64,000 nt of DNA from Rickettsiales bacterium (GCA_049418765.1 JBMSJJ010000002.1:104031-168030), one strand, 5' to 3'. Shown: positions 5,828 through 9,594, counted from the stretch's first letter. The notes: generated by a model from the sequence alone, not told the origin. Numbers and translations are program-made.

Positions 5828-6988
5828 TTACAAATTAAACTCTTCTTCTTCGCCTTTGTGATAAATTTCGTTAATGGCATTATTTAGGCGAAATATGCCG
5901 TTAAACTCAGTAATGATTTTTTTGCTTTCTTCCACCAAATTAAGTTGTTTGGAAATAATTGATGGCATAAAAATCGACTCATTTCTTTCAATATAAATTA
6001 GCATGGAATTTTTTTGAAAAGAGGCGGTAATGGTTTTAATATTTTTATTGCCAATTGATTTTTGATTAATTTTAAAATTTTCAAGTAAAAGGCCGAAGGC
6101 GTTAATAAATTCAATCGAAAATAATTCGTTAAATTCAACGCCACAATTTGAAAAAACTATAAAATTTTTATTAAAATCTTCATTGTTAATTTCGATTTTT
6201 TCGAGATTTTCTGGGTCAGGATTTTCTGGAAATTTAGCCTGTCTAATAATGGTTTTGGCATTAAAATCATGATTAAAATCGACTAAAAAGGCAATGCCTT
6301 CGCTGATTTTGGTGATTCTTTCTTTGTTAATGAATTCCGGAATATTTTTTTTATGCATCAAGGCAAGATCGCCTCGGTTAAAGCGTGGATTTTTTTTGGA
6401 AATAACATCCTTGTTGCGTAAAATAATTTTTTGAATGGCAATATGACAATTATCTTTTTTGGCGGTAATTAAATCTTGGCAATCGCAAAGTTGAGTTTCA
6501 AAATCAGGCAAAATGTTGAACTCTTGATATCTTTTAAATAGGTTGGTGCCATTTTCGTTATATAAAAAATTATCGCCAAAAAATTTGAAAAAAAATTGTA
6601 AAAAATTCTTTTTGTAATTGGCTTGAAATCCTTGATTTAAGTGGTTGGCGATAAAAATTATAATTAGCGACAACAAAATTGCAAAAAACCAGAAATTATT
6701 CGGGACTTTTTTTAAATAAACTTGTTGATAAAAAACCAAAATACCAAAAACAATAATTGAGTATGTGAAAAATTTTAGAGTTTTTAAATTATAAAGACGA
6801 AAATTTTCAATTGGCGAAATATGGGTTTTCAAATATAAATTATAGTAATCACGAAAGGCGATTTCATATATTTCTTTGGCGATAAAATTGTCGATGGAAA
6901 ATTTTGATTTTAACGAACTAAATATTCCATATATGGCGGTTTCGCAGGCGCTCTTTAAATTAAAATTTACAATTTTTTTTATTTTCAT
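5828..6988 (-). CDS. DUF3137-like membrane protein
   Basis: Probable start ATG 6988 overlaps the ileS stop (ATGA). Two TM helices followed by YKKNFLQ..FF, D.I, F+K.F.VFS and SF..NSMLIYI patterns typical of DUF3137. Confidence 0.65.
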   Translation of the reverse strand: MKIKKIVNFNLKSACETAIYGIFSSLKSKFSIDNFIAKEIYEIAFRDYYNLYLKTHISPIENFRLYNLKTLKFFTYSIIVFGILVFYQQVYLKKVPNNFWFFAILLSLIIIFIANHLNQGFQANYKKNFLQFFFKFFGDNFLYNENGTNLFKRYQEFNILPDFETQLCDCQDLITAKKDNCHIAIQKIILRNKDVISKKNPRFNRGDLALMHKKNIPEFINKERITKISEGIAFLVDFNHDFNAKTIIRQAKFPENPDPENLEKIEINNEDFNKNFIVFSNCGVEFNELFSIEFINAFGLLLENFKINQKSIGNKNIKTITASFQKNSMLIYIERNESIFMPSIISKQLNLVEESKKIITEFNGIFRLNNAINEIYHKGEEEEFNL

Positions 6989-9594
6989 GTTGCTGAAGTT
7001 TGATTTAAACCCTGCCAAACATATTCGCAAGTAAATGGCAATAACGAGGCCGAGGACTCGCACATAATATTTAGCACCGTAAATAAAACATTGTAGGCAT
7101 CTTGCTTGTCTTGGTCAATTTCACTTTTCCAAAAGCGTTGACGATTTCTACGGATATACCAATTATTTAGCACCTCAAAAAATTTATTGAACTCATCGCA
7201 GGCAATAACAGTATCGAATTTATCCATCGATTTTTCGATATTATTTACGCAAATTTTTAATTTGGACAAAATATAATTATCCAAAATATTTGGAAATTCT
7301 TGGTGGTAATTAATTCTTTGCGCTTTGATGCCATCTGCATTGGCATAAAGGCAAAAGAAGTTATAGGCATTGATTAGAGGTTTTATTGACAATCGAAGCG
7401 TGTCGCGAATGGCTTTACCGTCTTTATCAATCCGCAATTCTTGACCACGCATTACGGGTTGCGAGATCATGAAAAAGCGCATGGCATCGGAGCCAATCGT
7501 TGAAAATATTTCTAAAGGGTCGGCGTAATTTCTAAGGCGTTTTGATAATTTTTGCGAATTTTCATCAAGAATGGTGCCGTGGCAAATTACATTTTTAAAT
7601 GGAATTCGGTTGAATAAAGCGGTTGATAAAACCATCATGGTATAAAACCAGCCTCGAGTTTGAGCCTGATATTCGGTAATGAAATCTGCTGGAAAATTAT
7701 TTTCAAACCATTCTTTGTTTTCAAAAGGATAATGAACTTGGGCAAATGGCATTGACCCACTCTCGAACCAACAATCAAGCACATCGGAAACTCTTTCAAA
7801 AATTTCACCATTTTCTTCGAAAGTAATTTCATCGATGAAGGGGCGGTGCAAATTATCGATTTTTTTGCCTGAAACTTTTTCAATTTCAGCAATTGAGCCA
7901 AAGACGCGAATTTTTCCAGATTTGCTTTTCCACACAGGAACGGGGCAACCCCAAAAGCGATTGCGAGTGATTGACCAATCTCTGGCACCTTCGAGCCATT
8001 TACCGAATTGTCCGTCTTTAACATTTTCTGGAATCCAGTTAATTTGCTGATTTAGTTCCACCATTTTATCTTTAAAGGCCACGACCTTAACATACCATGA
8101 ACTTACGGCTTTGTAAATCAATGGTGTATCGGTACGCCAGCAATGTGGATAATTGTGAAGAATTTGTTCGGGATTGCCAAAAACTAATTTCTGTTCTTTG
8201 AGAAATTTGATGATGTCGTCGTTAGTTTCAAAGACTTGGCGACCTTGAAGATTTGGTAAATTCGGAATTTGATAATCTTTGGTGAAAATTTCAAATAGAG
8301 TTTTATTAATGACTAAGCTATTGAATTTGCCTGCTTCATCGACTGGGCAAATAGTTGGAATATGATTAGCCTTAGAAATAATTTGGTCATCTTCGCCAAA
8401 TCCTGGGGCAATATGAACAATTCCAGTTCCTTCTTCGGTTGAAACAAAATCACCTGCCAAAATCGTGAAAATATTTGGATTTGGATTAATTTCTGATACA
8501 TTGCCAGGTTTTGATGTTGAATATATTCCACCATTTTTTAAAAACTCAAAATATGGAAAAATCGGCTGATAGCTTAACCCAACCAACTCACTACCCATAA
8601 GGCTTCCAAGCAGTTGATGCTCGCCCAAATCCTTGGCAAATTTTTCAATTAAATTTTTGGCTAAAATTAAAATTTCATCATCTTTTTTGATTAAGGCATA
8701 TTCAATTTCCGCTCCAATTGCTAAAGCTAGATTTGAAGGCAAAGTCCAAGGTGTGGTGGTCCATGCGATTAATGCCACTTTGGATAAATCTTGATTAAAA
8801 TCGGTTAAAAATTTTGGAATTTCATTGAGGTAAAATTTAGCTTTAACAGTTTTGCTAGCCTTTTGCCTGTAAGCATTGTCCATTCTGGTTTCAAAATTGG
8901 AAAGTGGAGTTTGGCACGCCCAAGAATAAGGTACAACTCGTAAATCTTCATAGAGTAAACCCTTGTCAAATAGCTCTTTAAAAGCCCAGATCACCGATTC
9001 CATATAGCTTAAATCCATGGTTTTGTAGCTATTTTTAAAATCAACAAATCTGCCTTGACGAGTCACATAATGCTCCCATTCACTTGCATATTTCATTACT
9101 GATTTTTGACAGGCATCATTAAATTTTTCAATGCCAAATTCTTTGATAGCAATTTGTCCTGAAATATTTTTTTGATATTCTTTGCTAAGCTCTTTTTCGG
9201 TTTCCATTTCCACTGGCAAGCCGTGAGTATCCCAGCCGAACCTGCGTTCAACTTTTTTGCCCTTCATGGTTTGATAGCGGGCGAATAAATCCTTGATGAA
9301 GCCTGTAAGAAGGTGGCCATAATGCGGAAGGCCATTGGCAAAGGGTGGGCCATCGTAAAACACAAATTCGTTTTTTTCATCATGGTGATGCCTACAATTG
9401 CTATGCTCCTTTAAAGCACAGCTATCAATGACGGGCGAGGTGTTGTCTTCATCGAGTTCTTCGTTAAAATTACGAATTGCGATGGATTTTTCGAAGATTT
9501 TTTGCTCTTGCCAAAATTTTAGTATTTCCTCTTCCATTTTAGCAAAATCAAGATTTTGATTGGCTTGTGGATAAAATTTATTTTTATTCATCAT
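6985..9594 (-). CDS. ileS: Isoleucine--tRNA ligase, type 2 (eukaryote-like), C-terminally truncated
   Basis: FYDGPPFANGLPHYGH, GWDTHGLP, WTTTPWTLPSN, GTGIVH, YPHCWR, DWSITRNRFWG, QTRGWFY, KLSKR, NWYIRR. Ends YVWQGLNQTSAT* at 869 aa. Confidence 0.97.
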   Translation of the reverse strand: MMNKNKFYPQANQNLDFAKMEEEILKFWQEQKIFEKSIAIRNFNEELDEDNTSPVIDSCALKEHSNCRHHHDEKNEFVFYDGPPFANGLPHYGHLLTGFIKDLFARYQTMKGKKVERRFGWDTHGLPVEMETEKELSKEYQKNISGQIAIKEFGIEKFNDACQKSVMKYASEWEHYVTRQGRFVDFKNSYKTMDLSYMESVIWAFKELFDKGLLYEDLRVVPYSWACQTPLSNFETRMDNAYRQKASKTVKAKFYLNEIPKFLTDFNQDLSKVALIAWTTTPWTLPSNLALAIGAEIEYALIKKDDEILILAKNLIEKFAKDLGEHQLLGSLMGSELVGLSYQPIFPYFEFLKNGGIYSTSKPGNVSEINPNPNIFTILAGDFVSTEEGTGIVHIAPGFGEDDQIISKANHIPTICPVDEAGKFNSLVINKTLFEIFTKDYQIPNLPNLQGRQVFETNDDIIKFLKEQKLVFGNPEQILHNYPHCWRTDTPLIYKAVSSWYVKVVAFKDKMVELNQQINWIPENVKDGQFGKWLEGARDWSITRNRFWGCPVPVWKSKSGKIRVFGSIAEIEKVSGKKIDNLHRPFIDEITFEENGEIFERVSDVLDCWFESGSMPFAQVHYPFENKEWFENNFPADFITEYQAQTRGWFYTMMVLSTALFNRIPFKNVICHGTILDENSQKLSKRLRNYADPLEIFSTIGSDAMRFFMISQPVMRGQELRIDKDGKAIRDTLRLSIKPLINAYNFFCLYANADGIKAQRINYHQEFPNILDNYILSKLKICVNNIEKSMDKFDTVIACDEFNKFFEVLNNWYIRRNRQRFWKSEIDQDKQDAYNVLFTVLNIMCESSASLLPFTCEYVWQGLNQTSAT

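Follow-up and report, generated by a model that had tools for sequence, protein, structure and literature searches.

The window analysed here, a 64,000-nucleotide stretch from a Rickettsiales bacterium (GCA_049418765.1 JBMSJJ010000002.1:104031-168030), carries on its minus strand an ileS gene for a type-2 isoleucyl-tRNA synthetase (IleRS2) that stops early. In its 869-residue product, the catalytic Rossmann fold and the CP1 editing domain are joined by the first helical anticodon-recognition domain (ARD1). We refer to this product as the large chain, or alpha, since the remainder of the enzyme is very probably supplied by a second, separately encoded chain, beta. The gene, its motifs, the break point and the overlapping downstream gene are as follows.

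6985..9594, minus strand: ileS-alpha, type-2 IleRS large chain, 869 amino acids (aa); open reading frame (ORF) with Pfam, TIGR00392 and PDB matches.
9313..9324, minus strand: HYGH, the HIGH-type class I signature, residues 91-94; aligned with solved IleRSs.
8323..8790, minus strand: CP1 editing domain, residues ~269-424; matched by Thermus thermophilus editing-domain chains.
7537..7551, minus strand: KLSKR, the KMSKS-type loop, residues 682-686.
7003..7281, minus strand: ARD1 helical bundle, residues 772-864, corresponding to positions 1-89 of the 148 in the Pfam Anticodon_1 profile.
6985..7002, minus strand: break point, with five non-conserved residues (NQTSAT region) and the TGA stop.
5828..6988, minus strand: DUF3137 membrane-protein gene, 386 aa, its ATG overlapping the ileS stop; PF11335, E 5e-14.

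A first-pass annotation of this DNA had described a type-2 IleRS with HYGH and KxSK signatures, ending at 869 aa with its TGA overlapping the ATG of a DUF3137-like gene, and the present analysis confirmed each of these points. The stop codon occupies 6987..6985 and the ATG of the next ORF (6988..5828, 386 aa) lies at 6988..6986, giving an ATGA overlap. Against the NCBIfam model TIGR00392 (ileS) the protein scored 816.4 bits (cutoff 621.4), with positions 3-791 of 861 covered, and the GNAT-containing ileS model NF040702 was matched weakly. Matches to type-2 IleRSs in the PDB (E 1e-161 to 1e-191) were far stronger than those to the type-1 chains 1ffy, 8c9e and 8wnf (E 1e-71 to 1e-77). Residues 269-424 matched the isolated T. 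thermophilus editing-domain chains 1ue0, 1wk8 and 1udz (E ~1e-20), and the match to chain 1wny spanned residues 269-348. Pfam placed tRNA-synt_1 at 66-718 and Anticodon_1 at 772-864, the latter covering only profile positions 1-89 of 148. ARD1 contains NWYIRRNRQRFW (residues 811-822), the third arginine of which aligns with R721 of the Priestia megaterium IleRS2. The last ARD1 helix is LPFTCEYVWQGL (residues 852-863), and the polypeptide closes with ...LPFTCEYVWQGLNQTSAT, the stop falling five residues past the ...EYVWQGL helix.

In full-length relatives the chain runs on at this very point with the motif S[VI]HL..[FWY]P. Pfam detected no DUF5915 on the window polypeptide, so that the type-2 C-terminal region (the helical remainder, ARD2/INS and ARD3) is not on the same chain. 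Structure alignments end at residue 770 of the T. thermophilus enzyme, 767 of 1032 of P. megaterium IleRS2 and 786 of 1263 of the human enzyme; the 1ile chain comprises 821 residues, and the native length of T. thermophilus IleRS we take to be 1043. Judged by these alignments, some 255-265 C-terminal residues are absent. The first-pass annotation had expected a continuation from SVHL with a role in tRNA recognition, which holds, and had put its size at about 200 aa, which is too small. Its statement that the other frames hold no continuation was borne out: a tail profile built from 81 C-terminal tails of full-length relatives, taken from 150 representatives, found no ileS tail in the six frames of the window with filters off (best non-self E 0.8), and among the 53 window ORFs of at least 90 aa, ileS itself was the only one to match an ileS model. 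Read-through of the stop was considered as a source of the tail and rejected; the minus-strand 3' end reads ...ACA TGA AAA TAA, an in-frame AAA and then TAA following the TGA, and nothing would be gained. Nothing points to a changed genetic code (window G+C 31.5%; TGA terminates 3 of 53 ORFs).

The early stop is shared by relatives. When homologues of window ileS residues 450-869 were scored, the best 120 of 8000 were 78-99% identical. Among these 120, 108 were 808-929 aa long, 4 were fragments of 579-726 aa and 8 were 899-1119 aa, the extra length of the last group coming from an inserted DUF559/MTES_1575 domain; DUF5915 occurs in none of them. A locus scan with one genome per species yielded 80 related ileS loci. 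A tail match was present in 54, in the reading frame of ileS, with E values of 1e-65 to 1e-85 for the 50 intact full-length genes and weaker scores for L052, which is cut by a contig end, and for a second ORF in L035; the gene of L069, in two pieces, is a further exception among the 54. It was missing in 26, five of which are cut by contig ends (L004, L017, L044, L063 and L070). The breakpoint, compared across the 21 short-form genes complete at their 3' end, proved constant: every one stops 0-7 residues after the helix PFT.E.VW..L. The contig continues for at least 707 bases past the stop in 19 of these loci (406 in L041, 144 in L021), and no tail-profile match was found at any of the 21 in the available DNA, up to 10 kb on each side. 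A frameshift or open frame continuing ileS was likewise considered. In L010, L011 and L048 the frame is open past the stop, yet the sequence there is unrelated and gives no tail-profile match; the open frame after the L011 stop reads, by eye, as a peroxidase-like protein.

A few relatives depart from the common architecture. In-frame inserted domains were seen in the middle of the catalytic body of L010 (~503-611), L013 (531-639), L019 (570-708), L020 (513-651) and L048 (534-672), and the proteins P0121, P0123, P0127 and P0129 likewise carry extra in-frame domains there. The insertions in these alpha relatives are either DUF559/MTES_1575 (Vsr-like endonuclease fold) or one to three GNAT acetyltransferase domains, and the window gene has none. 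L035, from the Rickettsia endosymbiont of Bryobia graminum, carries a second ileS-like ORF of 833 aa (5038-7536) about 1 kb downstream of a full-length ileS. In L069, ileS is broken into two adjacent in-line ORFs, 9992-11941 and 11945-13366 (650 + 474 aa); the break lies near the KMSKS region, a different site from that in the window, and the second ORF appears as P0288 in the protein collection. A frameshift could account for this, or the gene could be a pseudogene or have been split in another way.

An ileS tree was calculated without the tail columns from 57 rows, the window and 56 loci, without the 5 genes truncated by contig ends, the interrupted gene of L069 and another 18 full-length genes. 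The 22 short forms constitute one clade (ultrafast bootstrap 96, Shimodaira-Hasegawa-like approximate likelihood ratio test 86), and the full-length gene of L032 is its sister (99/95). Between the window gene and its closest relative, L074, the ratio of nonsynonymous to synonymous substitution rates (dN/dS) is 0.071 over the whole gene and 0.078 over the last 150 codons. Hundreds of columns are invariant over 39 alpha sequences, and the common stop position is kept across a clade with identity as low as ~55%; over the alpha part, identity to the nearest full-length relatives is 50-65%. Rickettsia, Orientia and Wolbachia carry the same IleRS2 in full length at the orthologous position of the tree. 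By these comparisons, the truncation of ileS is old and arose in a single event, and selection keeps it in place.

What the large chain lacks is found in a protein family of its own. Using a profile (A1) of the tails of 17 full-length loci, from SVHL to the end, against proteins of 138-520 aa, 731 proteins were obtained at E <= 1e-3. Among the best 120, 78 are 250-285 aa long, start with methionine and carry S[VI]HL..P inside the first 16 residues, the remainder being mostly pieces of full-length enzymes. Starting again from one of these stand-alone proteins, P0375, the search yielded 361 proteins at E <= 1e-20; 117 of the best 120 measure 258-278 aa, and they lie on contigs of up to 1,085,924 bases. 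The stand-alone pattern fits 219 of the 277 proteins fetched. In these 219, 1-15 residues precede SVHL, exactly six in 161 of them, and a typical start is MINRKI-SVHLQDFP. The family is conserved on a par with alpha. In public databases the small chain is labelled 'hypothetical protein', 'DUF5915 domain-containing protein', 'ileS' or 'isoleucyl-tRNA synthetase'.

The make-up of these proteins is complementary to that of alpha. In the beta P0453, Pfam found DUF5915 together with a sub-threshold Anticodon_1 match to profile positions 93-145, and the alpha P0084 of the same lineage covers positions 1-95. P0453 aligns to residues 770-1006 of P. megaterium IleRS2 (E 9e-22), and the window alpha ends at 767. 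On the strength of these alignments, alpha and beta abut residue for residue, with one Pfam domain divided between them; in the relatives the two chains together cover the full-length enzyme with neither gap nor overlap, and the window presents the alpha half of it. An AlphaFold model of P0453 has a mean predicted local distance difference test score (pLDDT) of 86.8, the first 20 residues scoring 53-68 and lacking secondary structure. Among PDB structures, the model best resembles the tRNA-binding C-terminal region of IleRS2 in 8c9d, 8c8w and 8c8v (E 1e-19 to 1e-18, template-modelling score 0.63-0.67), and yeast IleRS bound to tRNA is also matched.

The histories of the two halves agree. The tail tree comprised 53 fused and 40 stand-alone tails, the latter being 32 representatives of a 70-member main group and 8 outliers. 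All 32 main-group tails fall into one clade (99/94), which includes one further stand-alone tail and a single fused one, that of L032. The same locus provides the sister of the short alpha clade and the lone fused tail within the beta clade, and the phylogenies of the two halves match. The eight outliers (P0276, P0279, P0283, P0285, P0307, P0319, P0324 and P0388; 259-279 aa) are placed among the fused tails of other alphaproteobacteria and could be independent splits or gene fragments.

Accession numbers connect the two chains further. When the first ten tails were compared by accession with ten large chains, all came from different submissions; a second choice gave two pairs. One consists of alpha P0084 (MBU6139981.1, on the contig of L011) and beta P0453 (MBU6140927.1, tag KGP29_05195), 946 numbers apart, and the other of alpha P0109 (NBV05610.1) and beta P0486 (NBV07059.1, tag EBS06_07505), 1449 numbers apart. 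Within each pair there is one NCBI accession series and one organism name. If the tags step by five, their numbers would be consistent with single genome submissions, one holding over 1000 proteins and the other over 1500. Divergence is similar in the two chains (P0084 and P0109 are 81% identical, P0453 and P0486 78%). From these accession blocks we infer that alpha and beta co-occur in one genome. The window's own genome would likewise carry a beta gene, at a place outside the window.

The division runs between the known determinants of anticodon reading. In IleRS2, ARD1 is described as reading A35 and U36 via R721, N647, F651 and S713, ARD2 as bearing a dispensable INS insert at the D-loop, and ARD3 as reading G34 via R964, Q961, K965 and L969; R721A and R964A each abolish charging, with a ~1000-fold drop in aminoacylation for R964A (bioRxiv 10.64898/2026.02.03.703510). 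The window alpha retains the counterparts of N647, F651 and R721 and has asparagine at that of S713. The ARD3 pocket of the betas, at the counterparts of Q961, R964, K965 and L969, reads Q..RK...[LIMV] in 197 of 219 sequences; in the remaining 22, R[KR] is kept in all and the glutamine in 21.

A complex was modelled from residues 625-893 of the alpha P0084 (38-row alignment) and the beta P0453 (43 rows). It scored 0.69, the best of three controls 0.00, on a measure whose mark is attained in 58 of 80 cases among solved complexes and in 2 of 110 among mismatched pairs. Contact agreement between runs was at least 96% and partner pLDDT at least 84. The modelled interface joins beta residues 5-33 (the SVHL..FP segment and the first helix) and 73-77 to alpha residues 784-809, 830-838 and 865-886, the last helix included; the alpha side of the interface is thus made by the equivalents of the window's ARD1 helices. 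The model shows that the two chains can be placed against each other in the manner of the fused enzyme; binding itself goes beyond what it shows.

We take as shown that ileS is truncated and that this is conserved, that a beta family exists with the make-up described, and that the trees of the two halves agree; on this basis we propose that the window very probably encodes the alpha chain of a heterodimeric alpha/beta IleRS2 whose genes are unlinked. Alpha (869 aa) would activate isoleucine, transfer it and edit, and its ARD1 helices would read A35 and U36. Beta (~260-278 aa), made from an unlinked gene outside the window, would contribute the final third of the anticodon-binding helical domain together with the ARD2/INS module, and also ARD3, the reader of the wobble base G34. 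Because there is no room for an intein, with 0-7 residues past the last alpha helix and 1-15 before SVHL, the two chains are proposed to associate non-covalently, as the complex model suggests. The helical bundle left incomplete in alpha would be completed by the first ~30 residues of beta, which comprise its SVHL..FP segment and first helix, and an anticodon cleft like that of ordinary single-chain IleRS2 would be restored. The split would have arisen once, in the ancestor of a clade of diverse uncultured Rickettsiales-like alphaproteobacteria, and would have been kept by purifying selection.

Since G34 would be read by beta and A35/U36 by alpha, beta might also act as a dissociable specificity subunit. 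Its level or occupancy might then tune isoleucine charging. The tuning might equally concern whether the GAU or the lysidine-CAU isoacceptor is favoured, or else turnover and the release of product, and alpha alone might have a basal or relaxed activity. We consider this role rather doubtful. If true, it would be a natural case in which the reading of tRNA identity is divided between two separately regulated proteins.

Several points weigh against the two-chain enzyme. Comparison of the alpha and beta cluster listings revealed no locus or contig with both genes, and for the window's own genome the beta gene was not found in the 64-kb window. Placing both genes in the same genome depends on how proteins of metagenome-assembled genomes are numbered in the accession series, which is indirect evidence, and such bins may be mixed. 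Of the 78 stand-alone tails, eight sit among fused forms, so that some of these proteins are gene pieces, pseudogenes or products of separate events rather than parts of the proposed enzyme. These genomes may also carry another ileS of full length, and the pass of the complex model may reflect likeness to solved single-chain IleRS2 structures. That no beta gene was found in the window, or in the DNA of up to 10 kb on either side of each of the 21 short-form genes, also fits a minimal IleRS, the alternative that the first-pass annotation had set beside a two-subunit enzyme. The 869-residue protein would then work alone, and the stand-alone DUF5915 proteins would come from other genomes or have another role, for example as a free tRNA-binding factor. 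C-terminal parts such as the INS subdomain are indeed described as dispensable and repeatedly lost, but R964 of ARD3 is essential in the same account (bioRxiv 10.64898/2026.02.03.703510), and the short form is without any ARD3. In addition, beta keeps the G34-reading residues, starts where alpha ends, shares the sister lineage of alpha and pairs with it in two accession blocks. A minimal enzyme is thus unlikely, and the two-subunit reading gains support from the complementary beta family, the divided Pfam domain, the common sister lineage, the two accession pairs and the model.

A complete ileS elsewhere, of type 1 or 2, could do the work while alpha is a decaying or non-housekeeping paralogue, as two IleRS genes are described for many bacteria (bioRxiv 10.1101/2023.01.31.526100). 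Decay does not agree with a dN/dS of 0.07, with hundreds of invariant columns in 39 alphas or with intact catalytic and anticodon-reading motifs. The stop position is constant down to ~55% identity, beta is equally conserved, and the ileS of Rickettsia, Orientia and Wolbachia is the same IleRS2, full length and at the orthologous tree position; we regard the paralogue as quite improbable. An artefact of assembly, frameshift or gene calling at 6985 is very improbable. One window alone cannot exclude a misjoin, and the relative L069 does have its ileS in two adjacent ORFs, but the misassembly that the first-pass annotation had named as a possible refutation is not borne out: 21 independent assemblies share the end point and have different genes after it, no tail lies in other frames or in the downstream DNA, and the betas have start codons of their own and lie on other contigs. 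Protein trans-splicing by a split intein, as in cyanobacterial DnaE, is barely conceivable. Nothing speaks for it beyond the gene being split and unlinked; the 0-7 residues after the last alpha helix and the 1-15 (usually 6) before SVHL leave no room for intein halves, and Pfam found no intein domain in either chain.

The surroundings of ileS differ on its two sides. The divergent hom-glyS genes upstream are conserved. The genes 3' of the short ileS vary among loci and are mostly convergent, on the opposite strand. Only L074 and L002, 2 of the 21 short-form loci, have a DUF3137 homologue after ileS, and the DUF3137 gene was rejected as a functional partner of ileS on account of this rare adjacency.

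Elsewhere in the window, a dnaE fragment (2..1165, plus strand) is open at the window's 5' end, and its stop abuts the ATG of mfd at 1166. It ends near residue 825 of 1160 of Escherichia coli DnaE, 882 of 1220 of the Taq protein and position 818 of 1146 of PRK05673; none of the other window ORFs gave a DnaE match. By the domain order as we assume it, the missing parts would be the helix-hairpin-helix, clamp-binding, OB and tau-binding regions. This fragment is probably the first 'split essential enzyme' of the earlier reader, who had counted ileS as a second candidate. A Lys/Glu-rich ORF of 218 aa (4648..5304, plus strand) directly after mfd has no Pfam or NCBIfam match. An ORF of 1145 aa (35474..38911, plus strand) has a TrbL/VirB6 segment (PF04610, E 1.6e-15) as its sole family match. 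It is presumably similar to the very large VirB6 paralogues in the type IV secretion systems of Rickettsiales, and such a likeness would agree with assigning the window to Rickettsiales-like bacteria.

Split aminoacyl-tRNA synthetases are rare and offer natural experiments on multi-domain assembly and on signalling from anticodon to active site. Here the cut would pass through the anticodon-binding helical domain, leaving two anticodon bases to one polypeptide and the wobble base to another. The arrangement appears fixed in a clade that is common in metagenomes, each half being represented by hundreds of sequence clusters, and would therefore have to be fully functional. It could be used to test whether, as recently proposed, aminoacylation rate is linked to remodelling of the IleRS C-terminus, and to study domain-domain communication in class Ia enzymes. 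Annotation can be corrected as well: the small chain is mislabelled or called a partial ileS, the large chain passes as complete, and pipelines for genome completeness and pseudogenes should call neither half broken.

The sequence data are already public, and the split arrangement appears to be undescribed. Literature searches found no description of a split IleRS and none on DUF5915; the phrase 'naturally split' in PMC3203616 concerns the CCA-adding enzyme and was set aside. The closest system in sequence is the ordinary single-chain IleRS2 (P. megaterium 8C8V; T. thermophilus 1ILE; Rickettsia, Orientia and Wolbachia), a member of the same family with conserved anticodon-reading residues and the same domain order, namely the Rossmann fold with HYGH and KLSKR, CP1 editing, ARD1, ARD2/INS and ARD3. 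In contrast to it, the enzyme described here is cut between Anticodon_1 positions ~92 and 93, right before SVHL..FP, and the distal part would come from an unlinked gene. C-terminal remodelling of IleRS, by loss of INS and by exchange of ARD3 for a zinc domain, affects the same hotspot region but takes place within one chain, and none of the five uses of 'split' in the main text of that study refers to a split gene; they denote phylogenetic splits, and its supplements may hold short forms (bioRxiv 10.64898/2026.02.03.703510). Cyanobacterial split-intein DnaE is likewise an essential enzyme from two unlinked genes, whose halves are ligated by an intein, whereas no intein sequence is present here. 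That two pieces of an IleRS can work without a covalent bond is made plausible by E. coli IleRS, which, when cut in two, reportedly reassembles non-covalently into an active enzyme (work ascribed to Shiba and Schimmel in the early 1990s); those cuts were artificial and engineered, in a type-1 enzyme with a zinc-binding C-terminus.

The closest system in kind is the alpha/beta leucyl-tRNA synthetase (LeuRS) of Aquifex aeolicus, to which the first-pass annotation had likened the window gene. The analogy goes no further than the principle, since the break lies elsewhere: we take the Aquifex subunits to be 634 and 289 aa, with the break inside the catalytic body. Like the enzyme proposed here, the Aquifex LeuRS is a class Ia synthetase of two different chains, natural and heritable rather than engineered. 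The Aquifex enzyme, with separate active-site and tRNA-binding parts, has been called unique (Xu et al. 2002, cited in PMC2377443). It differs from the present case in its amino acid, and the IleRS split falls in the anticodon-binding helical domain and is shared by a large clade with hundreds of sequences.

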